64,000 nt of DNA from an uncultured Candidatus Saccharibacteria bacterium (GCA_965230955.1 OZ246404.1:161184-225183); one strand, 5' to 3'; positions 1 to 18,490 are shown, counted from the stretch's first letter. Notes: a model not told the origin generated them from the sequence alone. Numbers and translations are program-made.

Positions 1-1
1 T

Positions 2-1966
2 TTTGATCGGATTGCCGGCGCTTTTTGGGACAAAGAGGAAAATGATCAATCCAGTCCCGCGCTTGATTTAAAATTATCGCCGACCAACGTGACGAAGGGC
101 GGAGAACTGAATGTCACCGTCTCGCCCCAAAACTTTCGCACGATGGTTCGGAATTTGTATTTGAACTGGTGCCTGACTAACGGCGAAACCGGCGCCACCA
201 AGAGTTATAATGAAGTGATCGCGGGCGGCAAACCGGCGCAAACGTACGCTCAAGCCGGCTGGGCCGCCGGCGGCTGTTGCTCGCCGCTGACTCGGTCGGT
301 GACTTCTGACACCGACAACGACGGTATGGATGATCAGTGGGAACGGAATAATTTTTTGGGCCGGGAAGTAAACGGCGTGTTGGTGACCGAAAGCAATATC
401 GATACCGTCATCCAGCCCGGTGATGATTTGGATCACGACGGATACTACGCCCGTAAATTTGTAAACAAAGAAGGCCGGCCGGTGACGGCCGCGCCGGCGT
501 TGATTGATCATTTGGGCCGGATTTATTATCCCGGCGCCGGCGATACGCGTTTGACCAATGTCGAAGAATTTATTTTAGGCACTGATCCGATGGATGGCGA
601 TACCGATAACGACGGTTGGGGCGATGAGATGGACTATATGGGAATCGGCGCGACCACTTTTTCTTTCCCGGTGGAATTGGCACCCGGACCGAGCGGTTAT
701 TACCTGATCACATCGATCGCGGCCGGTATAAACAGCAACGGTGAGGTTTCGGTGGCGGCGCGCAGTAAGCGCTTTGATGTTTCCGAGGGTGAAAATTTGG
801 AAGTGTCGCTGTCCAGTCCGCAAACGAGCATGATTATCGATGAGCAGCCGCCGGGAGGATTTATCAAACTGAATGTCAGTATTGCGGGCGGGGAAGTCGA
901 GCCGGAAGATTTATATTTTGAATGGTTTTTCAACGGTCAGCCGGTTTGTGATTCGGATAAATACCGTGATTTTTGCCAGATGGGGCGGGATAGTATTGAA
1001 CTGGGCGGGGACGGGAAAGCGCTGATTGATTTGCCGGGCCTGGACGGGAAAGCGATCAATTTACAGCCCGGCACTCCGTATCTTTTTGCGGTCCGGGTCA
1101 CGGATCCGGCCTCTCGTCGGAGCGCCGACGCTGCTTTATACGTGCCGTTGGCTCAAGCTTTGCATCTCACCACTGCTTGTTCGGCCGGCGCCACCGACTC
1201 TTCCGCTATCCCGACGGATTCCGGCGAAACGACGACTATTTGCGTCGAGGAGTTCCAGGCGGGTAGTACCACGGCGGCCGGTTTCACCAAAGCCAATTGG
1301 CAGTGGTCGTTGGACGATGTCAGCGTCCAGGAACAATCCGGTATCGGCAAAAGCACGTTGACTATTACCGAGTCGGAATTAGCCGGCGGACAGCCCAAAG
1401 TGGTAGCCGAAATATTTGATGTAGCGGCGGGCGGTTTACTGGCTCGGGCGGCGCGGGATTTCGCGACTACCGGTCCGACCGTCGAAATTACTGAGCCGGT
1501 ATCGGAATACTACGGCGGCGGACGAGGGACCGACAATCGACTGGTTCACGGTCAACCCGGCGAGACTCTCCGTTTTGTTGCCACGGCCGTAAATTTCCCG
1601 GTCACCGGCGAAATCAATTTTTCCTGGCAGGCGGGCGGAGCCCAAAGCCAAGGTGTTGGTTTGTCGACTTTTGAATATACGATTCCTCTGGACGCCAAAG
1701 CGGGCCAAGATATTCCGGTGACCATCATGGCGCAAACCCGGTCTGCGACCGGACAAACGCTCATGGCTGAAGATAATATTACCCTCTTGGTCGGCGCGAC
1801 TTCCGGGGTGGCGGGATTGGGCGAAAAATTTCAAGCCGGGCTGGCCAAGGTGGCGAATTTGATCCCGGCCAGCTATCGCCTGGCTTTCACGATAGTAATT
1901 TCCGGCGCATTAATCGCCGGGCTGGCTTGGTTGGTCATGCGTTTATTGAAAATCGGTTCACTATAA
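2..1966 (+). CDS. Giant surface protein paralog A, 5'-truncated by the window edge. It carries TSP3-like Ca-binding DxDxDG repeats and a C-terminal TM anchor.
   Basis: The frame is open back to the window start (GTG at 89 is only the first start the ORF finder could call). Motifs NLYLNWCL, AGGKPAQ, GGCCSP and DTDNDGMDDQWERNNFLGREVNG align to internal regions of the two downstream paralogs. It ends with a hydrophobic helix plus a basic tail. Confidence 0.8.
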   Translation, partial: FDRIAGAFWDKEENDQSSPALDLKLSPTNVTKGGELNVTVSPQNFRTMVRNLYLNWCLTNGETGATKSYNEVIAGGKPAQTYAQAGWAAGGCCSPLTRSVTSDTDNDGMDDQWERNNFLGREVNGVLVTESNIDTVIQPGDDLDHDGYYARKFVNKEGRPVTAAPALIDHLGRIYYPGAGDTRLTNVEEFILGTDPMDGDTDNDGWGDEMDYMGIGATTFSFPVELAPGPSGYYLITSIAAGINSNGEVSVAARSKRFDVSEGENLEVSLSSPQTSMIIDEQPPGGFIKLNVSIAGGEVEPEDLYFEWFFNGQPVCDSDKYRDFCQMGRDSIELGGDGKALIDLPGLDGKAINLQPGTPYLFAVRVTDPASRRSADAALYVPLAQALHLTTACSAGATDSSAIPTDSGETTTICVEEFQAGSTTAAGFTKANWQWSLDDVSVQEQSGIGKSTLTITESELAGGQPKVVAEIFDVAAGGLLARAARDFATTGPTVEITEPVSEYYGGGRGTDNRLVHGQPGETLRFVATAVNFPVTGEINFSWQAGGAQSQGVGLSTFEYTIPLDAKAGQDIPVTIMAQTRSATGQTLMAEDNITLLVGATSGVAGLGEKFQAGLAKVANLIPASYRLAFTIVISGALIAGLAWLVMRLLKIGSL

Positions 1967-1972
1967 GCAATA

Positions 1973-4960
1973 ATGAATTTCCACACGCTTAAATCTGCCA
2001 GATTGATTTACGGGTTGATTGCCGGCGGTTTTTTCTTTTTATTTTTCTGTCTGCCTCAGCTGGCGTCGGCGTATAGTTTTGATCTGAGTTTGTCCGGTGG
2101 AGAATCGGCCGCTAGCGCCGAGCTTTCTTCGGAGATCGGCAATTGGGAAGTTAACGGCGGAGAATTTGTGAGCGACGGATATTTGTTAAGTACGAGCAGT
2201 CTGATTCGGTTGAAATTACCGAATAACTTGCCGGTAGGCCATGTCAAAATCAGATTTGAAGCGAAGGGCATTGATAATGATGTCAAAGCTTTGCCGGCGG
2301 GAGCCCAAGACGGATACATGTTCAGTCTTGGAAATGAGTGGTGCAATCCTTGCCCCCAGGAGGGTTATAATCAGGGCTGTGACGCGGCCAATTTCGGAGT
2401 CAGCCTGAAGAAATGGCCCGCTAATATGGGAGGAGACGCCTATTCAAATAGTATTTTGGCTCAAGGCTGGAGCGGCTTATTTAATGGCACGGCGGTTCCC
2501 GGAGCGGGCGTAGGCGATCAGTTTAATTGGGAAGATTATACCGGTTTCTATACGGTGGAATTGGATTTACATGCCGGCAGTAGCAGCGGAACGTTGAGTG
2601 TCTGGAAAGGAGATCCCAATGCCGGGGCGGCGCCGGTTCTAAATTCACCGAGCGGAGTACCTTATGGTTTATTGAAGTATGATAATCGAGATGATCTCAA
2701 AGTCGGTATCGGCGCGGAAGCGCCGGGCGAACCGTCGTATGGGGGAGTGACGATCCGCAATGTCAGTTTGCTGATGGAAGAAGAAGCTGCTCCGGCCGGT
2801 CATCCCACGTATCCGACGCAATGCGCGAATGAGGATCCGGAAGATAATATTTACGGAGTGTGTTCGTGCGTGGGCGGATCGCTATCCGATCCGGTGCCTT
2901 GCGAGGACACATATGTCGCCGGAGACAAACGCAAAGCGACGGTAATGAATCAATTCCCGTTTGAATTCGATCATTGGAAAATTGCTTGGGATCCAACCTG
3001 GACCATCAAAAGCATGATGAAAGAATTTGAGGCCAAGGATAAAGAAACGCAGATGCCGGCTTCGGTCGAAGTGCAATTTACTCCGCCGTCGCCCAAGGAA
3101 GGCGATCAAGCCGGGGCGGTCGCGACCGCTCTTAATTTCCGGACCCGGCCCAATAATTTGTATTACGCCTGGTGTCTGGTTGATGGCGACAGAGTTTGGC
3201 CGATGAACAGCGTGGTGGCGGGCGGCACCAGGCCGGAAAACGCTTCCGACAAACCATTTGATGAAAAAGGCTGCTGTGGTCCGATTACCCGGACGCCGAC
3301 GGTTGATAAAGATAACGACGGGATGGATGATAATTGGGAAATAGAAAAATTCATTGGACGGGCAGGGACCAATTACACTTCGATCGAAGAAGTCCGTCCG
3401 GGCGATGATCCGGATTCTGACGGATTTAAAGCCAGTAATTTCAAAAATGAAAACGGGCAGACTTTGACGGTGGCACCGGGGATGAGAGACAGTAAGGGTA
3501 ACGGTTATGTTACCGGCCAGACCGGTTCTTTCGCCAATATTGAGGAATACATTGCCGGCACCGATCCGCTTAACGGCGATACGGACGGTGACGGATTCGG
3601 CGATGAAATGGATTACGTGGGAGTGGGGCAATCAAATCTGCCTTTTGATATTGAGAAATCAGCCGGGCCGAACGGATACTATGATGTCGGAGTGTCGGTA
3701 GTGGGAATCGATAGCCGGAAAAAAACGGCTTTGACCAGTTCCAAACAGCGGATATTTATCGGCGACGATGATCAGTTGGAAGTTACATTGGACGCCGACA
3801 AAGAAGTTCTGACCTTTGGCTCCGATCAATCACTGGTGATTCAAGCCGATACGATCGCCGGATCGGAAACAAATCGAATTTTGTATTACGAATGGTCGCT
3901 AAACGGCGACTCAGCTTGCGATAAGTACGGCTACGAAAACGAAGACCTGTGCGATGTCGGCAAAGATGAACTAAAAATCGGCGCGGGCGGAATCAGTCCT
4001 TTGGATTTGCCGGCACCGACCTCGGAAGATTATACGATTGGGGTCAAGGTGCGCGACCAGGCGAGCCGCGATGAAGCCGAAGCGACTCTGGTCTTGCCGG
4101 TGGCTTACGCCGTCACTCTGACCACGGTTTGCAATGGACAAACCCAAGAGATAAATTCATTACCGGTAAACAGCGGGGACACTTTAGGGATTTGCATCGC
4201 CGAAATTGATGAAATCACGGCGGAGATGGAAGCGGCCAAATTGAATTTTGTTTGGAGTTATGATGGCGTCAATGTGGCTGAACAATCCGGCTTAGGGAAA
4301 ACACAATTTACCTTGGTGGCGGATGGTGATGCCGGCGCGACTCATACCGTGGCGGTCAGGATAAAAGATCCCAATCGCGCCCGGGAATTCGCCAATGGTT
4401 CTCGCCAGTTTGGCGTCGGCGGGCCGCGTGTCTCCATTGTGGAGCCGGCTGATCGGATCACTTTCAGTGACCAGGTTGTTCCCGGGGAGACGCGTTTTAT
4501 CGCTGTTCGGCCCGGAGAAAAATTACCCTTGGGCGCGAACCAGGAGAACTTTATTGGCACTCAGGGTTGGGTTGTGAACTGGCAGATCAATGGTGCGGCG
4601 GCTAATTCATACACCCTGTCGACTTTTGAACCAGGGGAAAAGCACTTGTTCACGTTCGATGTGCCGGCGGAGGCTCGGGACGGGCAAGTTTATACGATTA
4701 ATTTTTCCATTACCGCTATCGATAATGATCCGCCGGAATCGGCCAGTGACTCGATCAAGGTTGTCGTCGGTCCGGAGTCCGGCGTCCTGGGGCGGGCTAA
4801 TCCTTTTTTCAGCACGATGGCGGCGGTATTCAATCAAGTGCCGGAAATATTCAGACAGCTGATCACTTATGCCGGTATTTTGGCCGCGGTCTTTTTCGCC
4901 CTGGTTTTTCTTTACCCGAAGGTCAGCCGCTTTTTAGAAAACCGTCAGTCGAAAAAATAA
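1973..4960 (+). CDS. Giant surface protein paralog B (995 aa). It has a signal peptide, a Cys-containing N-terminal region, TSP3/dockerin-like Ca-binding repeats, Ig-like beta repeats, and a C-terminal TM plus basic tail.
   Basis: The N-terminal signal peptide is followed by the conserved core LNFRTRPNNLYYAWCLVDGD...KGCCGPITRTPTVDKDNDGMDDNWE and GTDPLNGDTDGDGFGDEMDY. The C-terminus reads ...PEIFRQLITYAGILAAVFFALVFLYPKVSRFLENRQSKK. Confidence 0.85.
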   Translation: MNFHTLKSARLIYGLIAGGFFFLFFCLPQLASAYSFDLSLSGGESAASAELSSEIGNWEVNGGEFVSDGYLLSTSSLIRLKLPNNLPVGHVKIRFEAKGIDNDVKALPAGAQDGYMFSLGNEWCNPCPQEGYNQGCDAANFGVSLKKWPANMGGDAYSNSILAQGWSGLFNGTAVPGAGVGDQFNWEDYTGFYTVELDLHAGSSSGTLSVWKGDPNAGAAPVLNSPSGVPYGLLKYDNRDDLKVGIGAEAPGEPSYGGVTIRNVSLLMEEEAAPAGHPTYPTQCANEDPEDNIYGVCSCVGGSLSDPVPCEDTYVAGDKRKATVMNQFPFEFDHWKIAWDPTWTIKSMMKEFEAKDKETQMPASVEVQFTPPSPKEGDQAGAVATALNFRTRPNNLYYAWCLVDGDRVWPMNSVVAGGTRPENASDKPFDEKGCCGPITRTPTVDKDNDGMDDNWEIEKFIGRAGTNYTSIEEVRPGDDPDSDGFKASNFKNENGQTLTVAPGMRDSKGNGYVTGQTGSFANIEEYIAGTDPLNGDTDGDGFGDEMDYVGVGQSNLPFDIEKSAGPNGYYDVGVSVVGIDSRKKTALTSSKQRIFIGDDDQLEVTLDADKEVLTFGSDQSLVIQADTIAGSETNRILYYEWSLNGDSACDKYGYENEDLCDVGKDELKIGAGGISPLDLPAPTSEDYTIGVKVRDQASRDEAEATLVLPVAYAVTLTTVCNGQTQEINSLPVNSGDTLGICIAEIDEITAEMEAAKLNFVWSYDGVNVAEQSGLGKTQFTLVADGDAGATHTVAVRIKDPNRAREFANGSRQFGVGGPRVSIVEPADRITFSDQVVPGETRFIAVRPGEKLPLGANQENFIGTQGWVVNWQINGAAANSYTLSTFEPGEKHLFTFDVPAEARDGQVYTINFSITAIDNDPPESASDSIKVVVGPESGVLGRANPFFSTMAAVFNQVPEIFRQLITYAGILAAVFFALVFLYPKVSRFLENRQSKK

Positions 4961-4970
4961 TTTTCTAATC

Positions 4971-7802
4971 GTGAAGTGTCTAATTTTTTTATTTCATCGT
5001 CTGTTTTTTTTCACCGCGGTGGTTGCGGGCGCTTTTGTAATTTGGTTTTGCTGCCCAATGTCGGCCAAAGCCGAGATTTTGACCTACCCATCTTTTAGCA
5101 CGCCTTCGGAAACCTCCGGACAGGAATGGAAAGTGGGGGAGGCGGCCGGCGGCGCGATTGTCATCGGATCATTGGAATTTGATGTGTCCGATTTGAGTCA
5201 AGCCAATCTCCTCAAGCACCAGATTTTCGCTATGTTTGATGCCTCTCAGCCTACTGCCTTTGCCAATCACGGTTACTGGATTCATTTTCGGAAACGCGCC
5301 GAGTTACCTTTCGACGGCCCGGGTTTCCAGTTTAAATTACAGGTGGATTGCTCGTGGGATGATGAGAACGTCAAAATCGATCCGGCGGGCTGGATGCCGG
5401 ATCGCACTTATCATTTTACTTTTTCTTGGGATCGCGATTCGACTAAGGTGGAAGTCTTTGATCCCGTCACCGGCCAGTCGGAAATATCGGAATTGCCTTT
5501 GCCCTCGCCCTTCAAAGCCCAGGATCAAGCGATTGTTTTCGGGGTGGCGGGTTTGGCCAATAGCGCCGCTTTTCCGGCCGAGCCGGGCGCGCATTATAGC
5601 AATATCACTTTGAATGCCCAAGAAGTCATCGCGGAGTTTGACGATTTCAATGGTTATCCGGCCTGTGAATTTGACGGAGGATGCGGGTGCGTCACCGAAG
5701 GCGATCCTTTTTCGGCTCCTTGTTCCGAGGCCAGCAGTACTCGGCCGCCGGAACCGGCCGATGATCCTTTCACCACTTCACTAAAGAGCGGACTGAAATG
5801 GAATTGGAAGATGAAAGATATGGCCGATTATTTATCCTGGCGCGAGAATAACGACCAAGATAATCCCGATGTCGAGATCCAGTCGATGACGCCGGGTTTG
5901 CCGCGCGGCGAAAAAGCGTCTTTTACCGCGGTTGCCCAGAATTACCGAACTCGAACAGATAATATATATTATTCCTGGTGCGTGCGCGACAGTTTGACCG
6001 GCAAAACCGCCAATTACAATAGCGTCATGGCCGGCGGTTTGTTGGCCGAAACATCCGATCTGAAACAGCCGGATGGTCATGGCCAGTGTTGCCAATGGAT
6101 CACTCGCCGGCCAACCGTCGATTTGGATGATACCAACGGCGACGGCCGGCCCGAAGGCGACGGGATGGATGATAATTGGGAGCGTCAGAAATTTGTCGGC
6201 CGGGAGGTGAATGGCCGGACTTATAATACGATTGAAGAAGTATTGCCGGATGATGATCCCGATCAGGACGGCACGGTGATGAATCGTTTCATCAATGCCG
6301 ATGAAGGCGTCCCGGTGACGGTGGTGGCCGGCCTGGTGGATTCGCTGGGAAATAAATATATCGCGGGCGGATCTGCGGGAAAACTTCGAAATGTGGAAGA
6401 ATATATTTTAGGAACCGATCCGCTCAACGGCGACACCGACGGCGACGGTTATGCCGACGAGGCGGATTATCTAGGCGAAGGCCAGAGCGTTCTGGAATTC
6501 GTGCCGGAGCAAGCGGTCGGAACCGGGTTTTACGAGGTCCAGGTTTCGACAGTGGGACTGAGCTCTCGGAAGAAAACTTATGTGGCTCTCGCTACGCGCC
6601 GAGTTTATCCCAGCCTCAAAGAACAGTTCAGTATTTCATTATCTTCCGATCGGAATGTGATCCCGGTGGGCTCAAATGATTCCACCAAAGTTAATTTGAT
6701 CGTCAATGTGCTGGGCGGCGATGCCAGTGGCGCTCAACTGGATTTCAGCTGGACTTTCCAGGGTGAAAGCGTCTGCGATGCGCAAAAATATCCAGAGTTG
6801 AGCAAGTTTTGCGATTTCAATCAGGGCCGGATATCTCTCGGAGGAAACGGCGCGCTGGCTTTTAAAGATTTACCGGGGATGGATCAGGTGCCGGAAGGGG
6901 GAGACTATATCATCGGTGTTCGAGCCGTCGATAGTGCGTCGCGCCAGGATGCCAGCGCCGAACTTCGTTTGAAAAAGGGCTCGGCTCTGACGTTGACGCC
7001 GGCTTGCGACGGAGCGCGCGACGAGACGGTCAGCGTGCCGGCCAACGGCGGATCGACAGTCATTTGCATCAGTGAATACGGAGTGGCCGATTTGGATCCA
7101 GCCGGTGCCGCTTTTAATTGGGCGATCGACGGTGTGATTGATCAGAATCAGAGCGGTCTGGGTCGGGACCATTTTACTTTATGGGCGACCAAGCCGGCCG
7201 GGTCAAGCCAACAGGTTGATTTAAAAATATTGTACGGCTCCAGTTTGGAGCGGGAATTGCTGGGATCAATCAACGTGCCGGTCGTCGGTGCGCTGGTAGA
7301 AATAAATAAGCCGGCGGATCGGATTGAGCCCGGCGATGGCAATGTTCCCCAAGCTACTCGCCTGATACGCGTGGCTCCGGGGGAGACGATTACTCTGGGC
7401 GCGCGCGCGGAGGCTTTTGGAGCAATTGATTCCTATCAGTGGTCGTGGCAGGCGGGCGAAAGCTCAAGTAGTACCGAAGGGGCAAACTCCGAATCTGATT
7501 TTACTTATTCCGTGCCGGTTGGGGCCTCGATAGGGGAAGTGATACCGGTCTCGGTCACGGCGCGCGGGCAAAATCAAACCGGCCGAATCACGGATGCCGG
7601 CGATACCATTTCGTTGCTGGTCGGTAGCGGTAGCGGGCGACTCGGCGCGGGAGGCGGATTGTCGCGGACCTTCGCCGCTTTATCGGCGGTGATACCGGCT
7701 CAGTATCGGGCGAGTTTTCAATTAATCGCACTGGTGGCCGGGGCACTGGGTGTGCTATTGGCCGGATTATATTTTTATAGTCGAATGACTTCCAAGAGAT
7801 GA
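4971..7802 (+). CDS. Giant surface protein paralog C (943 aa; GTG start) with the same core module and C-terminal anchor.
   Basis: Signal peptide. Conserved motifs NYRTRTDNIYYSWCVRD, GQCCQWITRRPTVDLDD, GDGMDDNWERQKFVGREVNG and GTDPLNGDTDGDGYADEADY. C-terminus reads IPAQYRASFQLIALVAGALGVLLAGLYFYSRMTSKR. Confidence 0.85.
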   Translation: MKCLIFLFHRLFFFTAVVAGAFVIWFCCPMSAKAEILTYPSFSTPSETSGQEWKVGEAAGGAIVIGSLEFDVSDLSQANLLKHQIFAMFDASQPTAFANHGYWIHFRKRAELPFDGPGFQFKLQVDCSWDDENVKIDPAGWMPDRTYHFTFSWDRDSTKVEVFDPVTGQSEISELPLPSPFKAQDQAIVFGVAGLANSAAFPAEPGAHYSNITLNAQEVIAEFDDFNGYPACEFDGGCGCVTEGDPFSAPCSEASSTRPPEPADDPFTTSLKSGLKWNWKMKDMADYLSWRENNDQDNPDVEIQSMTPGLPRGEKASFTAVAQNYRTRTDNIYYSWCVRDSLTGKTANYNSVMAGGLLAETSDLKQPDGHGQCCQWITRRPTVDLDDTNGDGRPEGDGMDDNWERQKFVGREVNGRTYNTIEEVLPDDDPDQDGTVMNRFINADEGVPVTVVAGLVDSLGNKYIAGGSAGKLRNVEEYILGTDPLNGDTDGDGYADEADYLGEGQSVLEFVPEQAVGTGFYEVQVSTVGLSSRKKTYVALATRRVYPSLKEQFSISLSSDRNVIPVGSNDSTKVNLIVNVLGGDASGAQLDFSWTFQGESVCDAQKYPELSKFCDFNQGRISLGGNGALAFKDLPGMDQVPEGGDYIIGVRAVDSASRQDASAELRLKKGSALTLTPACDGARDETVSVPANGGSTVICISEYGVADLDPAGAAFNWAIDGVIDQNQSGLGRDHFTLWATKPAGSSQQVDLKILYGSSLERELLGSINVPVVGALVEINKPADRIEPGDGNVPQATRLIRVAPGETITLGARAEAFGAIDSYQWSWQAGESSSSTEGANSESDFTYSVPVGASIGEVIPVSVTARGQNQTGRITDAGDTISLLVGSGSGRLGAGGGLSRTFAALSAVIPAQYRASFQLIALVAGALGVLLAGLYFYSRMTSKR

Positions 7803-8773
7803 AAATTATTAACTTTTTTTCACAATTCAACGGTCGGACGGCAGTATTGCTCGGTCTGATAGTTTTGGGCTGTTTGCTGGCGGGCATGCCTTTCTTGACT
7901 CAGGCCGGGACGGTGAATCTGGAAGTAGGGATCGGTACCAACACCACGACCGAAGGTATATCGTTTTATATCGGCATGATTTATCGTTTTGCCGCGGCGA
8001 TCGTCGGGGTGATCGCGGTGATCATGATCATCATCGGTGGGATCCAGTATTCCGCTTCGGCCGGCAATCCCGCCGCCTTGGGTTCGGCCAAGGAGACGAT
8101 TACCAGTGCGATTATCGGCCTGGTGATTGTGTTGATGTCTTATTTGATTTTAGGTGTTTTCAGTTCGCGTTTCACGAATTTGTCCGAGCCGGTTTTGGAT
8201 CCGGTTGATATTCCCGCGACGGATAAACCGGCGAATGATCCCACCGGAGCCAATTGTCCGGGAACGTCAATGACCGATGCCAGGACAAATCTGGATTTGG
8301 ATGAAACGTGCACCAGTATCTGTCGTTTTGGGAAATACAGTGCTAAGTCGTATAAACCGAACGTAAATACCGTTTGCTGTATTTGCACGGCCGGTGGGAC
8401 TTGCCCCGGTGGATATATATATTCTCAAGATCGAAGCCAGTGTGATATGTTTTGTCGGCAGAATTTGAATATAGGAGTTGAGGATTATAAGGCTAATTGC
8501 TGCAAATGCCGTTCCTGTCCGGCCGGAAGCCGGCGAATATCCGATTTGGGCGGGCAGTCTTGCAGTCAAGCATGCGGCACCTTGGGGGTAGCCCAGGAAA
8601 CAGCCGAGTGTTGTACCTGTAATGCGGAGTCTCAATTACCATGCCAGATTGACGGCGCTTACTATTGTAATGCCGACAAAAAAAGCGTGGATAGTTTTTG
8701 TCAGACCTCGTTTTCGCCGGATCAAAATTGTAGAGTATCCCAAGAAGGCAGCCAATGGTGTTGTCGGCCTTGA
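7799..8773 (+). CDS. VirB2/TrbC-like two-helix pilin-domain membrane protein fused to a Cys-rich C-terminal ectodomain (24 Cys in about 180 aa).
   Basis: It overlaps the upstream stop by ATGA. After the signal peptide come two hydrophobic helices separated by a short polar loop (AIVGVIAVIMIIIGGIQYSASAGNPAALGSAKETITSAIIGLVIVLMSYLIL), typical of conjugative T4SS pilins. The C-terminal region carries CC dipeptides (VCCIC, NCCKC, ECCTC, WCCRP). Confidence 0.7.
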   Translation: MKIINFFSQFNGRTAVLLGLIVLGCLLAGMPFLTQAGTVNLEVGIGTNTTTEGISFYIGMIYRFAAAIVGVIAVIMIIIGGIQYSASAGNPAALGSAKETITSAIIGLVIVLMSYLILGVFSSRFTNLSEPVLDPVDIPATDKPANDPTGANCPGTSMTDARTNLDLDETCTSICRFGKYSAKSYKPNVNTVCCICTAGGTCPGGYIYSQDRSQCDMFCRQNLNIGVEDYKANCCKCRSCPAGSRRISDLGGQSCSQACGTLGVAQETAECCTCNAESQLPCQIDGAYYCNADKKSVDSFCQTSFSPDQNCRVSQEGSQWCCRP

Positions 8774-8816: not shown

Positions 8817-9782
8817 ATGAATACTTTTTCTAAAAAACTGATTTGGCTGGTCATCGTTTTAATGGCGGTGGTTTGGTTTAGTCCTTTTTGGGTTCAGGCC
8901 GAGACGACGAGAATCGTTCCGAAAAATGCGGTCAATTTGGAAGTGGGAATCGGCGGTTTCAATCAAGTGAAGGGCGGAATTGTTGACTACATCGGCCAGA
9001 TTTACATTTTTGCTACGGCAATTGTCGGCGGTTTGGCGGTGGTGATGATTATCATCGGCGCGGTGCAGTATTCCTCTTCAGCCGGCAACAAGGCGGCCAT
9101 GGGCTCCGCCAAAGAAACAATTACCAGCGCGATTATCGGATTGGTGATTGTGCTTATGGCGTATTTGATCCTTGGGACATTTAGCGGAGATTTTGTGAAT
9201 TTGGTGAATCCGAGGCTGGAGGTTCTGGATATTTCCGATCAGGCGCCAGGCAAAGCGGGTTGTTCTTGGCAAACCGGTACCTCTTGCTCTGATCCTGTCA
9301 ATTTCAGGCAAGGTGATGCGGTAGAGTGTGGCGGTACGGCCGAGGCAGGAAAAGTTTGTTGTTGTCAAAGAGTTGATACTCTTCCGGGAACGTGTTTTGA
9401 TTTTTCCGCGGATAAAAATTCCTGTGATCCAGACAACGGGAAAAGAAATTGCTTTAAGCCGATAAGTGGACCATATAATAGTTTGACCGGTTGTACGGTT
9501 AATTGTACCAATAAAAACCCAGCTAATTTCTGTAAGGAGTCACCAGTAGCTGATGGCCAGCAATCTTCAGCGTATTGTTGTTATGAAGATGTTACTCCTC
9601 CTCCTTCTGGTGTCCCAGAGTGTCCGGCCGATACCACGACCGGGCGAATGTATGACTATTACGACCAATGCAAGCGAGCTTGTGGTGTGGCGGGCGATAA
9701 ATGTTGTCGAGCGGCAGATTTGACCACGTGTGTAGCGGCTAGTAGCTCGGACAAGAATTGGTGCTGTATGCTAAATCCGTAA
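8817..9782 (+). CDS. Paralog of the previous protein: a VirB2/TrbC-like pilin-domain membrane protein with a divergent Cys-rich ectodomain (22 Cys).
   Basis: The N-terminal 120 aa are nearly identical in pattern (NLEVGIGG...AIVGGLAVVMIIIGAVQYSSSAGNKAAMGSAKETITSAIIGLVIVLMAYLILG). The C-terminus is Cys-rich and divergent (VCCCQ, YCCYE, KCCRA, WCCML). Confidence 0.7.
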   Translation: MNTFSKKLIWLVIVLMAVVWFSPFWVQAETTRIVPKNAVNLEVGIGGFNQVKGGIVDYIGQIYIFATAIVGGLAVVMIIIGAVQYSSSAGNKAAMGSAKETITSAIIGLVIVLMAYLILGTFSGDFVNLVNPRLEVLDISDQAPGKAGCSWQTGTSCSDPVNFRQGDAVECGGTAEAGKVCCCQRVDTLPGTCFDFSADKNSCDPDNGKRNCFKPISGPYNSLTGCTVNCTNKNPANFCKESPVADGQQSSAYCCYEDVTPPPSGVPECPADTTTGRMYDYYDQCKRACGVAGDKCCRAADLTTCVAASSSDKNWCCMLNP

Positions 9783-9785: not shown

Positions 9786-11018
9786 ATGAAGAAAATAGTT
9801 TTATTGATTATCATTGCCTCGTCTGCTTTTGTGGGGATTTTGGTGTTTTTTCTGTTTTTCCGTTCGGCCGGTACTGTCCCGCCAGCCGGGAGCTCTGTCA
9901 CATCTGCGTCTGATTCTAGTAATCCAGCTTCGGGTCTTAATCGATTCCCGATTGATAGTCAATCCAATACGGCGGGGAGTACTGAGGAAATGCTGGTGGT
10001 GACGACGGAAAGCGCCTTGCGCGATCGTTTTGTCATGAAAAAAATCATAAACACAAAGACGGAGGGAGCGACGCTGTCGGCTGATGGAAACAGAATCCTA
10101 TACTACGATATTTTAGATCCGGTTTTGGCTTCGGTAAATTTTTTAGGAGCCGATCCCAGAGAATTGGCTGATTTGCCGAGTAATGTCGAAGAAATAATTT
10201 GGGCTCCCGATAAAGACAAGATAGTTTATCGTGACGATGCCGCCAATATTACGTATTTTGAAATTGCTGGCAAAAAAGAGAGAAGGCTGAACCCAAATAT
10301 AAAGAGCGTCGTTTTTACTTCCGATAGTCAAAAGATTTGCTACCAATATAGCAATGATAAAAATAGCCAAAAGACTATCAATATCGCGACTCCCGGCTTG
10401 GACCTGACCGATTTCAAAGTATTGGTACGTGGTCTCGGTGATTATCAATTACGATCGATTCCGATGACAACTAAGCTGGCTTATTTTTTAACGCCGAGTC
10501 TTAAACGCAGTTCCATCGCTTATTCTATAAATACTTCTGATGGAAATAGGGAGATTTTAGTGGGCGAGACACTTGGTTTAGACGCACGCTGGTCGCCTGA
10601 TGGGAAAAAGATGGTTTTTACCCAGCTGGTTGAAAATGGACGATTGGCTTTGTTGCTGGCGCCTAGCACGGGGCTAAATCCGTCGGATCTTAAACTGTAT
10701 ACTTACGTAGATAAAACGGCTTGGCATCCAAATGGTTCCGAAGTATATGTTGCCGAGCCGCAGCAGTGGGTTTCGCTTGAGGATTATTACTCCGGCAACG
10801 TCAAAACAAACGATATTCTGTATAAGGTGAATATAAACACTGGTGAAAAAACGGAATTACTGAATCTTTTCAATGTCGTCGGCTCTAAAGTCGATTTCAG
10901 AGATGGATTTTTCACGTCCGATGGAAAGATTCTTTTTTTCACCAACGCGGTTGATCAGTCTGTTTACATGATCGATGTTGAAGATGTTAATTTGACCGCC
11001 GCGGATAATATCAGATAA
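9786..11018 (+). CDS. Membrane-anchored secreted protein with a TolB/PD40-like beta-propeller repeat signature.
   Basis: N-terminal TM (MKKIVLLIIIASSAFVGILVFFLFF). Repeated W-x-PDG motifs (WAPDKDKIVY, WSPDGKKMVF, WHPNGSEVYV) typical of PD40/TolB-like blades. Confidence 0.55.
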   Translation: MKKIVLLIIIASSAFVGILVFFLFFRSAGTVPPAGSSVTSASDSSNPASGLNRFPIDSQSNTAGSTEEMLVVTTESALRDRFVMKKIINTKTEGATLSADGNRILYYDILDPVLASVNFLGADPRELADLPSNVEEIIWAPDKDKIVYRDDAANITYFEIAGKKERRLNPNIKSVVFTSDSQKICYQYSNDKNSQKTINIATPGLDLTDFKVLVRGLGDYQLRSIPMTTKLAYFLTPSLKRSSIAYSINTSDGNREILVGETLGLDARWSPDGKKMVFTQLVENGRLALLLAPSTGLNPSDLKLYTYVDKTAWHPNGSEVYVAEPQQWVSLEDYYSGNVKTNDILYKVNINTGEKTELLNLFNVVGSKVDFRDGFFTSDGKILFFTNAVDQSVYMIDVEDVNLTAADNIR

Positions 11019-11020: not shown

Positions 11021-12415
11021 ATGCCCAAACCCAAAACAACTTACGAGTGCACTAATTGCGGAGCGCAGTTCCCGGGCTGGCTCGGGCGCTGTACCGAATG
11101 CGGCGCTTGGAATACGGTTGAGGAAACCGCGGTTTTGCCGGAAAAACAAACGGCGACCGGCGCGTCCTATACGCCCAGCCGGCCGAGCCAAATGAGCAAG
11201 ATTGCTAGTGTCGGCTCCGAGGCCATGCTGACCGGGATCGGCGAGTTTGATCATGTTATCGGCGGGGGAATCATTCCCGGCGGAGTGATTTTGATCGGCG
11301 GCGATCCGGGGATCGGGAAATCGACTTTGGTGATGCAGATTTGTGCCGGATTCCTGAAAACCAATACCAGTAAAAAATTGCTCTATGTTTCCGGCGAGGA
11401 ATCGCTCGGCCAGATCAAGATGCGAGCGGATCGTATCGGCATCACCGGCGATTCAATCGAATTTTTGACCGAGACCGGCGTGGAATATATTATTTCGGTC
11501 ATTTCCAAACAAAAGCCCGCGCTGGTGGTGATCGATTCAATTCAGACCATGTATACGAATGAAGCGCCCGGGGGAGCCGGCAGTATTTCGCAGGTGCGGG
11601 GAGCTACCGGAAAACTCATGGAAGTGGCCAAGCGTTTCAATGTCGCGCTGATCTTGATCGGTCATGTGACCAAAGAAGGAGCCGTGGCCGGACCGCGCAC
11701 CTTGGAACATTTGGTTGATACCGTTTTATATCTCGAGGGCGATCGCTATCAGGCTTTCCGGATTTTGCGCGGAGTCAAGAATCGTTTCGGCTCGACCAAT
11801 GAAACCGGCGTGTTTGAAATGCGGGATGAGGGCTTGGTGGAAGTCAAAGATCCTTCGGGAATTTTCTTGCAAGAGCGCCTAACCGATGTTTCCGGCTCGG
11901 TGATCGGCGTGACGGTGGAAGGCAATCGGCCATTTTTGATCGAAGTTCAAGCGTTAACGACTACGACGCCTTTCGGCTATCCCAAACGAACTTCTTCCGG
12001 CATCGATTTTAATCGCTTGTCGCTTTTGATTGCCGTTCTGATGAAACGGGCGGGGCTGAATCTTTCTTCGCAAGACGTCTTTGTTAATATCGTCGGCGGT
12101 TTTCGGATCAAGGAACCGGCGGTTGATTTGGCCGTCTGCCTGGCTGTCGCCTCCGCTTTTCTGGACAAACCGATCGCTCCCCAAACGGTGGTGGTCGGCG
12201 AAGTTGGTTTGGCGGGCGATGTCCGCCCGGTCGCGCTGATGGATCGGCGGGTAATGGAAGCGTCGAAACTCGGTTTCACCACGATTCTGGTGCCAAAAAT
12301 GGCCAATGGCAATCTCAAAGTTCAAAATAACGGCAACAGCAAATTGGTGCCGGTGGCGAATTTGACCGAGGCGATCACGGCCGTGCTGGGACCGGTAAAA
12401 CGGTACCGCAAATAA
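11021..12415 (+). CDS. radA: DNA repair protein RadA/Sms
   Basis: N-terminal C4 zinc finger (CTNCGAQFPGWLGRCTECGAW), Walker A GDPGIGKST, KNRFG motif, and a Lon-like C-terminal domain. Confidence 0.95.
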   Translation: MPKPKTTYECTNCGAQFPGWLGRCTECGAWNTVEETAVLPEKQTATGASYTPSRPSQMSKIASVGSEAMLTGIGEFDHVIGGGIIPGGVILIGGDPGIGKSTLVMQICAGFLKTNTSKKLLYVSGEESLGQIKMRADRIGITGDSIEFLTETGVEYIISVISKQKPALVVIDSIQTMYTNEAPGGAGSISQVRGATGKLMEVAKRFNVALILIGHVTKEGAVAGPRTLEHLVDTVLYLEGDRYQAFRILRGVKNRFGSTNETGVFEMRDEGLVEVKDPSGIFLQERLTDVSGSVIGVTVEGNRPFLIEVQALTTTTPFGYPKRTSSGIDFNRLSLLIAVLMKRAGLNLSSQDVFVNIVGGFRIKEPAVDLAVCLAVASAFLDKPIAPQTVVVGEVGLAGDVRPVALMDRRVMEASKLGFTTILVPKMANGNLKVQNNGNSKLVPVANLTEAITAVLGPVKRYRK

Positions 12416-12979
12416 ATGGCCCGCCTGCCCCGAAAATTTTACGAACGTTCGACTCTAAAAGTTGCTCCGGAGTTACTGGGGCATTTTTTAGTGAGACAAG
12501 GAACAGGTAACAAGGAACAAGTAACAAAAAGGAAAACGATAATTACGGATGTGGAGGCGTATGTGGGAGAGGGGGATCCGGCTTGCCATGCCAGTCGGGG
12601 ACAGACCGAGCGCAACAAAATTATGTATGGCCGGGCCGGCCACGCTTACGTTTATTTTATTTATGGAATGTATCACTGTTTGAATGTGGTTACGGAGAGG
12701 GAAGGTTTTCCGGCGGCAGTGCTAATACGCGGCGTAAGTAACAAGGAACAGGGAACAAGTAACAAAAGGGAAATATTAAATGGCCCGGGGAAGTTGTGTC
12801 GGGAACTGAGGATAACTAAGGGGCTAAATGGTACTGATTTAGTTATGGGGCAAGAACTGTGGATCGAAAAAAATCCCGAGCGAAATAATTTTTTACGATC
12901 TCGCAAAATCAAAAAAACCCCGCGCGTCGGTATTAGCGCGGGGCGAGATAAATTGTGGCGCTGGGTGATCGAATCGTAG
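12416..12979 (+). CDS. mpg: DNA-3-methyladenine glycosylase (Mpg/AAG family)
   Basis: Motifs VEAYVGEGDPACHASRGQTERNKIMYGRAGHAYVYFIYGMYHCLNVV...AAVLIRG...NGPGKLC. Two loop regions are encoded by GTAACAAG-type repeat DNA (see findings). Confidence 0.85.
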   Translation: MARLPRKFYERSTLKVAPELLGHFLVRQGTGNKEQVTKRKTIITDVEAYVGEGDPACHASRGQTERNKIMYGRAGHAYVYFIYGMYHCLNVVTEREGFPAAVLIRGVSNKEQGTSNKREILNGPGKLCRELRITKGLNGTDLVMGQELWIEKNPERNNFLRSRKIKKTPRVGISAGRDKLWRWVIES

Positions 12980-12983
12980 CGAG

Positions 12984-13355
12984 TCAGCCGGCAGGTTCTT
13001 TGGTCTGGCGACGTTTGGCCAGGGCGCAGTCCGCACAGATAGTGGTTGTCGGCGCTTTTAACAGGCGAGTCAGGCCGATGGGTCGGGCGCATTGATGACA
13101 TTGATCATCAAATGTGCCGGTCTGAATTTGATGGATCCTGGCGTAGAGGCGGAGAAGTTTTTGCGACAATCTCGCCAGCTTGGTCCGGTTTGTTTCCTCG
13201 GGGTAAATCGCGATTTCCGTGGTGGCAGCGTTTTGGTCGGCCTCAACCTTCGGTGATAGAGGGGGACGGAGCTGGTTTAGAAGTTCGATCTCGGCGGCGA
13301 GGTCGAACTTTTTATTCCGGAGCACTGCTAACAAGTTTTGCCAATTTCCCTCCAT
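12984..13355 (-). CDS. DksA/TraR-family C4 zinc-finger protein
   Basis: Coiled-coil N-terminus and a C-terminal CxxC...CxxC (CHQCARPIG...CADCA) in the arrangement typical of the DksA/TraR family. Confidence 0.6.
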   Translation of the reverse strand: MEGNWQNLLAVLRNKKFDLAAEIELLNQLRPPLSPKVEADQNAATTEIAIYPEETNRTKLARLSQKLLRLYARIHQIQTGTFDDQCHQCARPIGLTRLLKAPTTTICADCALAKRRQTKEPAG

Positions 13356-13478
13356 AAATATCCTCCTTTCTGTCTTCGGTTCTCTTTGATTAGTAGGATC
13401 CTAGCAGTAGGTATAAAAACAGTCAATAAAAAAACAGAGAAGCATGCTTCTCTGTTTTGCGTCTGGATGGTCCTCCGT

Positions 13479-13824
13479 CTACATTTCCGGCGAGGTGCGT
13501 CCGCCGGTGTGCCTGGCGAAATTTACGTTCTTTTGATGCCCGATCGAAGGTCTCCCAGTGCCTGTCGGTTTATTCTTGCAGGTTTCGCACAGGCTTGTTC
13601 CACGGTGGACGGTGGTGTTTTTTTTGAGGGTCAGAAATTCTTCCAGTAATTTCGACCCTGTGTCAACACCTTGTTTGTGCCGTTCCGCTGAGCAAAAATC
13701 GCAGATCGTTTGTTGGCGATAACCCAGTTTCCGAATCTCTGCAACCATCTCTTCTTCGCCCATTTGCACCTTTTCTTGCGCACTTTTTTTCGCACTTCCT
13801 TTCGCGCGTACTTCTGATGCCATC
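13479..13824 (-). CDS. Hypothetical small zinc-ribbon protein (CDFC...CETC)
   Basis: Strong RBS (GGAGG 6 nt upstream of ATG at 13824, minus strand). Two CxxC pairs. A bidirectional terminator lies downstream at about 13428..13459. Confidence 0.5.
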
Positions 13825-13987
13825 CTATGCCTCCTAGATAGTATGAAATTTTTCCACCCCAGCCCTCCGTACAATGGCTAGATAATAGCAAGTCTATTGG
13901 TTTTGTCAAGCCTCTTTAACAAATGCCGGCTGTGAATAAATGACAAAATAAAACACCCGCCGGAGCAGGTGTTGAACGAAACATTGT

Positions 13988-14257
13988 TTAGATCTCGATT
14001 CCTCGTTTTATGACCAGTTTCACGATTGGATTGTCGCTGATCGCGGACCCGTCCGGAAAGCTGACGGCCTCTTTTATATCTTCCTTGAGAAAATGTGCCA
14101 GAGCAACTCGGGAAATGTCCTGATCCGTGAGATTTCCCGGATTTGCCTGAAACAAACGCGCCATTTCACTTTCCGTAAGACGTCTGGGGCGCGTTCGAGC
14201 CTTGTACACGAGTTCTGCCAACGATGGTTTGGGGGTGCATTTTCTGCCCGATTTCAA
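13988..14257 (-). CDS. Hypothetical small protein (about 90 aa). Likely TTG start after an AAGGAGG RBS.
   Basis: AAGGAGG followed by a 6-nt spacer and TTG on the minus strand at 14257. The longer ORF extension reported by the finder (to 14365) has no RBS. Confidence 0.4.
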   Translation of the reverse strand: MKSGRKCTPKPSLAELVYKARTRPRRLTESEMARLFQANPGNLTDQDISRVALAHFLKEDIKEAVSFPDGSAISDNPIVKLVIKRGIEI

Positions 14258-14392
14258 TGAAGACCTCCTTGGGTTTGGATATACTGCCCTGGGCGGTATA
14301 TCGTGATGAAACATTCCCTCACAGATCAATGGCCAGAGGATACCGAAAAAAATCATAATTGTCAAGGCTAGCTAACAAACTTGATAATTGAA

Positions 14393-16456: not shown

Positions 16457-16561
16457 AATGATAGTTTAGCAGGGGAGAGATAAGACGTAAAATAATAAGA
16501 ACGTGGAATAATAAAAAAATAACCCCTCGAGATGAATCTCGAAGGGTAGATGGTGGGGGGA

Positions 16562-16807: not shown

Positions 16808-16991
16808 TTTAAACCCTCCTATGGTGTTGTCAGTTTAGCATGATTTTTTTTTGTGTCAAATATGTTGAAAACAAAAAACCGCCCTTTGATTCGCGGGGCC
16901 GTTTTGATATTAGTCTTTTAACTTTAATTTTTTTTGGATTTACGATTTTGAATTTTGGGTTTCCACCGCCGCCATTAGGCGGCGTGTGGGC

Positions 16992-18470: not shown

Positions 18471-18490
18471 GCAGGCGAAATTCAGCAAGC

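Follow-up and report, generated by a model that had tools for sequence, protein, structure and literature searches.

Three consecutive genes at the left end of the window (the whole stretch of 64,000 nt analysed here, from an uncultured Candidatus Saccharibacteria bacterium) encode large proteins that finish in the same way: a short shared motif, a hydrophobic helix and a basic tail. They raise the question of whether this ending is an undescribed sorting signal, as the initial annotation proposed, or an ordinary membrane anchor, and of what part such proteins play in the cell. Patescibacteria, which live attached to host cells, account for a large part of the bacterial diversity that is still uncultivated.

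The gene array and its T4SS cluster

The array and the genes that follow it are arranged as listed here.

2..1966, + strand: gene 1, paralog position 1; ORF open at the left end of the window, stop at 1966
1973..4960, + strand: gene 2, 995 aa, paralog position 2
4971..7802, + strand: gene 3, 943 aa, GTG start, paralog position 3
7799..8773, + strand: VirB2-like T4SS pilin (324 aa) with a long Cys-rich C-terminal extension (PF18895, 34.3 bits; synteny)
8817..9782, + strand: second VirB2-like T4SS pilin (321 aa) with a Cys-rich extension (PF18895, 38.6 bits)
9786..11018, + strand: PD40 / TolB-like beta-propeller protein, membrane-anchored (410 aa; PF07676)
11021..12415, + strand: RadA, a conserved downstream neighbour that starts 2 nt past the PD40 gene

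Spacers of 6 nt (1967-1972) and 10 nt (4961-4970) separate the three paralogs, the stop codon of gene 3 and the start codon of the following gene overlap (ATGA at 7799-7802), and the operon gaps are, in order, 6, 10, -4, 43, 3 and 2 nt. A terminator scan between the genes gave nothing convincing. The promoter matches found by scanning are consensus matches only.

The part of gene 1 inside the window comprises its C-terminal 654 codons, beginning at about residue 320. The gene is present whole, at 973 aa, on a 16-kb Logan contig and on a 1.136-Mb NCBI contig; the window portion is identical to the C-terminal part of this 973-aa protein (P0006), and its counterpart on locus L001 lies at L001:2338-5259. 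For gene 3, the NCBI gene call (P0046) also gives 943 aa, and a signal peptide is obtained from this start only, the 914-aa Logan call being one that would lack it. Pairwise identity amounts to 35% and 38% against gene 1 and to 32% between genes 2 and 3, and the array proteins score more than 900 bits with the family HMM, which rules out chance. The ORFs, these identities, the shared core and the C-terminal helix uphold the earlier description of three tandem paralogous surface proteins, exported and membrane-anchored.

Positions within the array are orthologous between genomes. Genes 1, 2 and 3 of the window correspond to the first, second and third array genes of L007, and the same one-to-one agreement holds for L010 and L014; the two visible genes of L013 match positions 2 and 3, and in L012 agreement is found at positions 2 and 3 only. 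Gene amplification of the antigenic-variation type was rejected as the origin of the array for this reason, and the three genes appear to be old, non-redundant paralogs.

The gene for VirB4 sits just left of the window, so that the T4SS context was invisible to the initial annotation. On the Logan contig, which carries identical proteins, a VirB4-like ATPase (PF19044, DUF87, AAA_10) and a 140-aa membrane protein are encoded directly upstream of the array. Eight loci (L001, L007-L012 and L014) share the gene order VirB4, (small membrane protein), two to five family members, one or more pilins and usually PD40 and RadA, and L013, which is cut before VirB4, has the same order from the array on; in the source records, the syntenic loci are labelled Saccharibacteria, Parcubacteria, Andersenbacteria or Patescibacteria. 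The small membrane protein between VirB4 and the array is poorly conserved and varies from 128 to 221 aa across loci, and a PD40 homolog is present in seven of the nine related genome loci checked and in many metagenomic VirB4 loci. In L007, a VirB6/TrbL-like gene (weak, 17 bits) lies upstream, together with PrgI and a gene whose product weakly matches the TraC N-terminal domain (TrsD-like by position). The array belongs to a Patescibacteria (MPF-FATA-like) T4SS gene cluster, an association conserved across lineages, and it is this synteny that suggests a functional link between array and T4SS. VirB4 is 63-85% identical across these loci as against 21-38% for the family members, a difference that fits surface exposure of the latter. 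The Patescibacteria T4SS is essential for epibiotic growth (PMC10633639, PMC11665869). In a 2025 survey, T4SS loci were linked with radA, recG and comF in class ABY1, with which the window agrees, and neither adhesins such as PrgB nor PrgB homologues were detected in Patescibacteria (PMC12102498).

The family is unnamed, has no Pfam or NCBIfam model and occurs between virB4 and pilin genes in several lineages; so far it appears to be confined to Patescibacteria. L005 excepted, every full-length member with enough flanking sequence sits in a locus of the VirB4-array-pilin type. Of the 31 metagenomic VirB4 loci in which 5 kb or more follow downstream, one or two encode a large family member, 19 a ~340-aa Ig-only relative alone, and 11 nothing detectable. 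The cultivated model Southlakia epibionticum has peptidoglycan hydrolases downstream of VirB4 and not this family, which is therefore not a universal T4SS part. A word-indexed homolog search with a broad family alignment was swamped by candidates sharing TSP3 words and missed known distant members, and it yields no family size.

Domain architecture of the array proteins

The domains in front of the C-terminal ending are listed for gene 3.

4971..5072, + strand: signal peptide (residues 1-34), with a hydrophobic segment at 1-32 and a helix at 3-26 in the AF2 model
5073..5645, + strand: N-terminal head (residues ~35-225), concanavalin-A-like lectin / LamG beta-sandwich fold
5856..6530, + strand: conserved core module (residues ~296-520), with a PKD-like domain, WC, AGG and CC..TR motifs and three TSP3-like DxDxDG loops
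6468..7625, + strand: stalk (residues ~500-885), about four Ig-like beta-sandwich domains in AF2 secondary structure, pLDDT mostly 75-92

Cleavage of the gene 3 signal peptide is predicted to occur after SAKA, following the AxA rule; the signal peptide of gene 2 ends with LASA, before YSF. Genes 1 and 3 share a homologous head (48% identity), with a two-sheet jelly-roll fold of the concanavalin-A-like lectin / LamG type that matches solved members. Identity to such modules in pilus-associated or phage receptor-binding proteins (S. sanguinis PilC, 7oa8; CBA120 TSP2 N-domain) is 5-16%, and a profile of the gene 3 head found nothing among PDB sequences under E=0.5. Unlike these lectin/LamG-like heads, that of gene 2 is of a different sequence type, with no detectable relationship to the other two (hhalign probability 3.5%). 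Pairwise column identity in the N-terminal regions is 0.22-0.38, and their earlier description as divergent is thus accurate.

The core module is the most conserved part of the family, with a pairwise column identity of 0.47-0.64. Its motifs, namely WC(L/V), AGG, CC..TR, D.DNDGMDDxWE and GTDP(M/L)(D/N)GDTDxDG..DE.DY, are all aligned in the three proteins and are kept in relatives at just 21-26% identity, confirming the common core that had been read from the window. Across 26 divergent members there are 18 invariant columns, nine of them Asp, of which eight fall within the three DxDxDG loops; W403, T482 and P484 are three further invariant columns inside the loop motifs, which hold 12 of the 18. 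Each protein has three loops (residues 384-404, 429-434 and 482-499 in gene 3), and their acidic positions are invariant or nearly so in the same 26 members. The proposed resemblance of these D-rich motifs to thrombospondin-type-3 repeats was well founded, in that they fit the DxDxDGxxDxxE pattern, and the D-rich stretch takes the family profile to PF18884-annotated proteins from other phyla. Scores with TSP3_bac (PF18884) are 12.9 bits for gene 1 and 16.8 bits for gene 3, both under the 25-bit gathering threshold, with none for gene 2; a neighbouring protein in L007 passes that threshold with 48.6 bits. The alternative identity of the loops as dockerin was rejected, there being no Pfam dockerin match and the TDPxxxDTDxDG spacing being that of bacterial TSP3 repeats. 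The loops are predicted to bind calcium; in the AF2 model of gene 3 (mean pLDDT 70), pLDDT in the calcium-type loop region is 35-57.

Gene 3 reaches 25.3 bits with PKD (PF00801; cut-off 23.5) without any single stretch passing, and its residues 296-351 form a beta-sandwich in the AF2 model; genes 1 and 2 have no PKD match. Searches of the array proteins with Pfam and NCBIfam gave no match beyond PKD and TSP3. With the whole gene 3 chain, Foldseek against the PDB returned generic multi-Ig or macroglobulin chains only (C3/C5, Hoc, MpIBP; TM ~0.14), a model-based result that indicates a string of beta-sandwiches and is uninformative beyond that. The last two Ig-like domains of gene 3 (residues ~683-890) are homologous to the ~340-aa proteins of other Patescibacteria VirB4 loci.

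The combination of DxDxDGxxDxxE loops (TDPxxxDTDxDG) with strings of Ig-like domains recalls PF18884 TSP3 proteins and calcium-stiffened Ig-repeat adhesins (MpIBP), with Foldseek matches to 4p99 and 5irb. In contrast to those proteins, the array proteins carry only three loops, set inside a family-specific module with WC, AGG and CC..TR. They also differ from RTX-type giant adhesins, being far smaller and not type I secretion substrates.

The common C-terminal ending

The ending comprises the following segments.

1877..1963, + strand: gene 1 C-terminal transmembrane helix and basic tail RLLKIGSL
4847..4957, + strand: gene 2 C-terminal transmembrane helix (residues ~959-985) and basic tail PKVSRFLENRQSKK
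7629..7706, + strand: gene 3 Gly-rich linker, amphipathic pre-membrane helix (LSRTFAALSAV) and IPAQYR, the 'motif' of the initial annotation
7707..7799, + strand: gene 3 C-terminal transmembrane helix (residues ~913-937) and basic tail SRMTSKR

The shared endings read LLVGATSGVAG...IPASYR in gene 1, VVVGPESGVLG...VPEIFR in gene 2 and LLVGSGSGRLG...IPAQYR in gene 3, and in every case a hydrophobic segment of 26-27 residues (Kyte-Doolittle mean > 2.2) comes next, and then the basic tail. What had been claimed of this ending stands in part: the common motif, helix and basic tail are found in all three proteins, but the interpretation as an undescribed sorting signal is not supported, the tail being confined to the family among the proteins searched and less conserved than the rest of the protein. 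In the gene 3 model, residues 887-919 have pLDDT < 50 with a short helix at 896-907. The amphipathic pre-membrane helix, whose hydrophobic moment of ~0.3-0.5 is reached by a median of 1.7% of shuffles, recurs across the family.

The tail is limited to this family. A profile of the last ~70 aa, searched against 1.84 billion representative proteins, matched family members or their fragments only, apart from one repeat artefact; all the short matches are truncated family members, and the sole non-family match (P0023) was dismissed because its score adds up from ten matches of 5 bits each to a repeat within the protein, VSGMAKVFSAIPSDRR, and the protein has no terminal helix. Among the ORFs of the window and of loci L001-L023 the profile again found the family only, barring a marginal match to a 204-aa L012 protein, which was discarded as a tail carrier in that the match covers a transmembrane helix only. 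No tail outside the family was detected in 80 VirB4 loci, and the other envelope proteins of the window lack it. Conservation of the tail is 0.29-0.32, against 0.36 for the whole protein and 0.47-0.64 for the core, and one column is invariant among 16 sequences; the IPxxYR motif is missing from the members in L009, L010, L012, L013 and L014, and the terminal helix is kept in distant relatives. With NCBIfam, neither the whole proteins nor their last 70-76 aa matched a CTERM or LPXTG model, the tails not even at E<=10; the sole tail match, to the SA1362 family, is noise at 16.6 bits against a 42-bit cut-off. An LPXTG-like pentapeptide was not found before the helix, IPASYR, VPEIFR and IPAQYR being without T-G at positions 4-5.

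No partner enzyme was found in the regions scanned. Pfam families of the sortase, exosortase or rhombosortase type were absent from the ~46 window ORFs scanned, the L007 flank and the conserved neighbourhood, and no candidate for the co-occurring membrane protease or transpeptidase that the initial annotation had envisaged was found in the conserved neighbourhood. No polytopic enzyme candidate is conserved beside the array, the neighbours being VirB4, the membrane protein, pilins, PD40 and RadA. Of the 1.136-Mb genome, the enzyme scans and the locus-level tail scans covered the 64-kb window; the other loci scanned were of ~20 kb.

It is very improbable that the ending is a new sorting signal, cleaved by a dedicated membrane protease or transpeptidase. 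Its three-part layout, present in all three proteins, is shared with the substrates of sortase (LPXTG), exosortase (PEP-CTERM), archaeosortase (PGF-CTERM) and rhombosortase (GlyGly-CTERM), which have a short semi-conserved segment, a hydrophobic helix and a basic cluster, and a few distant relatives again have an (I/V/F)Pxx(F/Y)R-like element (FPDKYR in L008, IPSVFR in L011, Y(L/V)P(A/S) in L047/L048); some described sorting systems, moreover, serve one substrate family only. However, the array tail matches no signature motif or model of those substrates, belongs to one homologous family, is less conserved than the body of the protein and has no partner enzyme in its neighbourhood, and a signal peptide followed by a C-terminal helix and a positive tail is the generic topology of type I membrane proteins as well. 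Because the motif is found only in these paralogs and their orthologs, the sorting-signal reading fails on the very point by which it had been proposed to judge it. The shared 'motif' is best read, from its distribution and conservation, as the family's own juxtamembrane segment and membrane anchor rather than as a signal for a sortase-like enzyme, and recognition of the tail as an ordinary anchor averts the creation of a spurious new "CTERM" class.

A possible role in the T4SS

With moderate confidence, the array proteins are regarded as membrane-anchored stalk or adhesin subunits of the T4SS, the tail serving as an ordinary anchor. Each protein would be exported by Sec with loss of its N-terminal signal peptide, and the mature protein would be held in the cytoplasmic membrane by one C-terminal stop-transfer helix, leaving a short positive tail in the cytoplasm (type I topology). 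Read outwards from the membrane, the ectodomain would consist of the Gly-rich linker and amphipathic pre-membrane helix, about four Ig-like domains, the conserved module with its three thrombospondin-type-3-like calcium loops and conserved cysteines, the PKD-like domain and, outermost in this lineage, the variable lectin-like head. A calcium-stiffened stalk may carry a binding head outwards from the T4SS, across the cell envelope, and act as the adhesin or host-contact part of the system, possibly assembled from the three paralogs.

Two further readings compete with this proposal. The proteins might be general-purpose host-attachment adhesins that are encoded in the same operon or neighbourhood as the T4SS genes yet work independently, which we consider unlikely. 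Patescibacteria commonly have large surface proteins that contain lectin, Ig-like and calcium-repeat domains, for which a host-binding function is routinely proposed (PMC13059738, PMC10633639), a lectin-like head and fast sequence evolution would suit a stand-alone adhesin, and the family is missing from many T4SS loci. Set against independence are the position between virB4 and the pilins, which eight divergent loci retain together with close or overlapping gene junctions, the occurrence in such loci of all full-length members with enough flank, and the homologous Ig-only protein found at this place in 19 of the 31 other VirB4 loci. Distant members of ~675 aa without any head domain are also common, and these fit a structural subunit better than an adhesin. 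Such subunits could belong to the envelope-spanning conduit or pilus base of the T4SS, for example as a heterotrimer replacing missing VirB8/9/10-type parts, with the lectin head a lineage-specific add-on. The conserved number and order of the paralogs with their positional orthology, conservation that resides in the core and Ig stalk and not in the head, and the recurrent pre-membrane helix are consistent with this, as is the rarity of VirB8 homologues in Patescibacteria reported in the 2025 survey (PMC12102498). A purely structural role is nevertheless doubtful to a similar degree: a copy number of two to five speaks against a machine part of fixed stoichiometry, many T4SS loci lack the family, among them that of the essential Southlakia system, and Foldseek against the PDB revealed no fold similarity to VirB8, VirB9 or VirB10.

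Within the favoured reading of the array as anchored T4SS stalk or adhesin subunits, a more specific version may be put forward tentatively, in which the array is an unrecognised extracellular part of the T4SS, a calcium-rigid anchored stalk assembled from paralogs of conserved array position, on which, in this lineage, exchangeable lectin-like heads set the host that is engaged while the family-specific pre-membrane helix docks on the T4SS membrane complex. The T4SS being essential in the one species tested, the family offers concrete candidates for its host-facing part and for host-range determinants, and the conserved core module could become an annotation profile for these loci.

Among the nearest known systems are the surface adhesins of Gram-positive conjugative T4SS (PrgB, PrgA and PrgC of pCF10, TraO of pIP501), which are also large, exported, C-terminally anchored and projecting proteins encoded in monoderm T4SS clusters and are thought to mediate contact with target cells. 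No sequence or domain homology to them was detected (Pfam and NCBIfam; no adhesin or polymer-adhesin domains, no LPXTG), and the array proteins would be anchored by a retained transmembrane helix and not, as in the PrgB type, by LPXTG and sortase. The array also comprises two to five paralogs beside VirB2-like pilins, whereas the Gram-positive systems are without such pilins. The small secreted Ig-like proteins (~240-390 aa) of other Patescibacteria T4SS loci occupy the same slot (VirB4, X, pilin, PD40) and are homologous to the last two Ig-like domains, but they are single copy and lack the core calcium module, the head and the C-terminal transmembrane anchor.

Tandem paralogs and their type IV secretion locus

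At the left end of the window are three tandem genes, the products of which, together with their relatives, are referred to here as the family:

Gene 1: open at the left window edge, stop at 1966, + strand, 654 codons in view
Gene 2: 1973..4960, + strand, 995 aa
Gene 3: 4971..7802, + strand, 943 aa, GTG start

The intergenic gaps are 6 nt and 10 nt, in agreement with the tiny spacing reported in the initial annotation. The full-length gene 1 protein P0006 (973 aa), encoded on two contigs, one of 16 kb (Logan) and one of 1.136 Mb (NCBI), has a C-terminal part identical to the visible gene 1, so gene 1 is complete elsewhere. NCBI likewise annotates gene 3 as 943 aa from the GTG at 4971 (P0046); the Logan assembly gives 914 aa from a shorter start, without a signal peptide, such that 4971-5057 of the window is in dispute. 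The paralogy and shared motifs proposed earlier stand: the three proteins are 32-38% identical across their entire shared length, and WC, AGG, CC..TR, D.DNDGMDDxWE and GTDPxxGDTDxDG..DE.DY, as well as LLVG..SG..G and (I/V)Pxx(Y/F)R, are present and aligned in all three, each of which ends in a 26-27-residue hydrophobic segment and a basic tail. In the source databases the proteins are hypothetical or nameless, and no description of the family was found in the literature searched.

Genes for a 140-aa membrane protein and a VirB4/TraC-type ATPase lie upstream of gene 1 on the Logan contig encoding identical proteins (L001). In the window, two genes for VirB2-like pilins (PF18895) of a type IV secretion system (T4SS) come after gene 3, the first sharing 4 nt with it, and are followed by a membrane-anchored PD40 beta-propeller and then RadA; all gene junctions from the array to RadA are tight. 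A pattern scan in which each species was represented by one genome yielded 13 loci with relatives, found by local HMM searches to be arrays of 2-5 tandem paralogs. The order is fixed, namely VirB4 (followed by a small membrane protein), two to five family members and one or more pilins, then usually PD40 and RadA. It is seen from VirB4 to pilin in L001, L007-L012 and L014, and from the array onward in L013, where the contig ends before VirB4; the source records label the syntenic loci Saccharibacteria, Parcubacteria, Andersenbacteria and Patescibacteria. Upstream genes in L007 encode a VirB6/TrbL-like protein (weak, 17 bits), PrgI (VirB3-like) and a protein weakly matching the TraC N-terminus, which we read by its position as TrsD-like, a set corresponding to the repertoire described for Patescibacteria T4SS (PMC12102498). 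In the window, radA, recG, a ComF-like gene and recX adjoin the T4SS genes, and the linkage of radA, recG and comF is the same as that reported for class ABY1 Patescibacteria (PMC12102498).

Window 11021-24371: DNA repair/competence cluster comprising RadA, methylpurine glycosylase, RecG (-), ComF-like phosphoribosyltransferase (-), ClpB (-) and RecX

The paralogs are positionally conserved, with window genes 1, 2 and 3 corresponding to the first, second and third in L007. L010 and L014 also match position by position, the two visible genes of L013 are the second and third, and L012 matches at the second and third. The paralogs are therefore old and non-redundant, and recent amplification as the origin of the array was rejected on the same grounds. 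Among syntenic loci VirB4 is 63-85% identical, versus 21-38% for family proteins, a fast divergence that would be expected of exposed surface proteins.

Several other proteins encoded in these loci may be mentioned. The small membrane protein (128-221 aa) always lies between virB4 and the first paralog, has no Pfam match and is barely conserved in sequence across lineages (phmmer finds L003 only). At the upstream edge of the L007 cluster a 353-aa protein carries bona fide bacterial TSP3 repeats (PF18884, 48.6 bits), which places calcium-loop proteins at both ends of that cluster. Both window pilins have a very Cys-rich C-terminal extension of ∼190 aa, including CC and CxC pairs, and relatives in related loci are mostly shorter (118-270 aa); large Cys-rich ectodomains are unusual in VirB2-type proteins. 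Further along the window, a complete type IV pilus cluster is immediately preceded by a 1143-aa ORF that lacks a Pfam match and has a membrane segment at its N-terminus, and a 1124-aa protein with N-terminal hydrophobic segments is probably another large surface protein. The N-terminus of a 554-aa ORF between LigA and GatA, which has neither a Pfam match nor a hydrophobic segment, is Arg/Cys-rich, so its true start may lie later.

Small membrane protein: L001:1900-2322; L007:9552-9938; L009:5388-6053; L012:7043-7657
L007:872-1933: 353-aa TSP3-repeat protein
Window 7799-8773 and 8817-9782: VirB2-like pilins, 324 and 321 aa
Window 24603-28034: 1143-aa ORF
Type IV pilus cluster in the window: PilM 28085, PilO 29916, PilB 30775, PilT 32658, PilC 33839, prepilin peptidase 36102, pilins 36961, 38175 and 38698
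Window 42814-44478: 554-aa ORF (TTG start)
Window 47155-50529: 1124-aa protein with NHL, FG-GAP and TIG repeats

Domain layout and putative calcium loops

The layout of the gene 3 protein was derived from an AF2 model (mean pLDDT 70) and a separate model of the head (pLDDT 90), which has a lectin-like fold:

N-terminal end: signal peptide (AF2-based layout)
Residues ~35-225: head, beta-sandwich (head model)
Between head and PKD-like domain: Cys-rich linker (AF2-based layout)
Residues ~296-351: PKD-like domain (AF2 model)
Residues ~351-500: conserved module with three DxDxDG loops (poorly modelled in AF2)
Residues ~500-885: about four Ig-like domains (AF2 model)
C-terminal end: linker, membrane helix and short basic tail (AF2 model)

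The gene 1 head is homologous to that of gene 3 (48% identity), no relation of the gene 2 head to either is detectable, and distant members of ∼675 aa are headless, beginning at the PKD-like domain. The core module, gene 3 residues ∼296-520 including the loops, is not covered by any Pfam or NCBIfam model. Across 26 divergent sequences, the three loop motifs hold 12 of the 18 invariant columns, eight of them Asp. The bacterial TSP3 pattern in its canonical form, TDPxxxDTDxDG, is found in the third loop, and by way of this stretch both tblastn and the family profile pick up proteins of unrelated phyla annotated with PF18884; the gene 1-3 proteins themselves score under the curated cut-off for PF18884. 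The loops are thus predicted, with good support from sequence, to bind calcium; if ions are required for their folding, the poor model of this module would be no surprise, as AF2 models none.

The C-terminal tail

The conserved C-terminal anchor had been proposed as a possible undescribed sorting signal. A tail profile of 71 positions was built from 16 family members, and an HMMER search of 1.84 billion representative proteins gave 19 matches at E<=0.001, of which 18 belong to the family, some of them as truncated gene calls, as judged by alignment to the full-length family profile; the short matches align from residue 1 onward to its C-terminal part. The other, P0023, was rejected as a tail bearer outside the family, its ten 5-bit matches being to an internal repeat without the terminal helix. 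The profile search suggested in the initial annotation has thus recovered the family only, apart from this repeat artefact. Among all ORFs of the window and L001-L023, only family proteins matched save one marginal case, a 204-aa L012 protein, likewise rejected because the match covers a transmembrane helix only. Eighty further VirB4 loci gave no match, and the tail is absent from the other window envelope proteins (the 1143-aa ORF, the 1124-aa NHL/FG-GAP protein, the PD40 protein and the pilins).

The tail is also less conserved than the rest of the protein, with a pairwise column identity of 0.29-0.32 versus 0.36 for the whole protein and 0.47-0.64 for the core, and only one column is invariant in the 16 aligned sequences. 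Distant members in L010, L012, L013 and L014 retain the terminal helix and basic tail and have lost IPxxYR. No NCBIfam LPXTG, PEP-CTERM, GlyGly-CTERM, PGF-CTERM or similar model matched at E<=10, even with isolated tails, nor was a sortase-type Pfam family found in the L007 flank or in any of the ∼46 ORFs scanned from the window. What can be discerned family-wide is a weak pattern in which a Gly-rich linker leads into an amphipathic helix (F..LAAVF; hydrophobic moment ∼0.4, matched by a median 1.7% of shuffles), often followed by Pro, and then into the membrane helix. In the gene 3 AF2 model, LLVG lies within the final beta-strand of the final Ig-like domain; the linker has pLDDT <50 and includes a short helix (residues 896-907), ahead of the membrane helix (913-942). 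We read the tail as the family's own juxtamembrane segment and the stop-transfer anchor of a predicted type I membrane protein; confined to one family and having the appearance of a plain anchor, it is most improbable as a real sorting signal, and this is the outcome that the initial annotation had itself named as refuting the idea.

In the L009 members the C-terminal end is a short amphipathic segment and the full helix is missing. The five-paralog array concerned (L009:6688-19217) has such termini (e.g. ...SVQASVGALFGKLSKLISW) in place of full-length transmembrane helices, and this lineage seems to have kept the pre-membrane helix and lost the anchor.

Proposed role and spread across Patescibacteria

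The role of the Patescibacteria T4SS was termed "completely unknown" in a 2024 review, and a 2025 survey, which includes ∼2,500 virB4-positive Patescibacteria genomes, detected no adhesins near Patescibacteria virB4 (PMC12102498). We lean slightly towards the gene 1-3 proteins being Sec-exported, anchored calcium stalks. After export their signal peptides would be cleaved and the C-terminal helix would hold them in the membrane with the basic tail facing inwards; a stalk made rigid by calcium in the three loops together with the Ig-like domains would project the head through the wall beside a VirB2-like pilus or channel. There they may contact the target cell or act as envelope-spanning accessories of the T4SS, possibly as hetero-oligomers of the positionally conserved paralogs.

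Adhesins working independently of the T4SS could also have a lectin-like head and diverge fast; set beside the fixed place of the arrays between virB4 and the pilin genes, this reading is unlikely. Structural subunits rather than adhesins would be compatible with conserved paralog order, and are no more probable. For the favored anchored stalk, the closest proteins in working are PrgB, PrgA and PrgC, adhesins of Gram-positive conjugative T4SS clusters; however, the gene 1-3 proteins lack homology to these and LPXTG, are arranged as paralog arrays and are not members of that group. Their component parts are similar to those of TSP3-repeat proteins and of Ig-repeat adhesins stiffened by calcium.

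A VirB4-profile scan of metagenome contigs gave 80 loci, of which 31 continue for 5 kb or more downstream of virB4 and were assessed. One of these (L047) has a large family member that includes both the core module and the C-terminal anchor; L048, with only 4.5 kb downstream and hence outside the 31, resembles it. No family relative is detectable downstream of virB4 in 11 of the 31, and in the cultivated model Southlakia epibionticum, for which the T4SS is essential, peptidoglycan hydrolases follow virB4 (PMC10633639 tables), as they do in Saccharimonadia. In the remaining 19, the gene directly after virB4, itself followed by pilin and PD40, encodes one secreted protein (∼240-390 aa) whose homology to the family is confined to the final pair of Ig-like domains of the latter (gene 3 residues ∼683-890). 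The large form is therefore a lineage-restricted elaboration of a T4SS operon slot, of which the Ig-like module is the more widespread occupant. The Ig-only relative looks like a widespread, unnamed T4SS-locus protein; examples are:

L059:11814-12851: Ig-only relative
L068:12287-13309: Ig-only relative
L074:11871-12926: Ig-only relative
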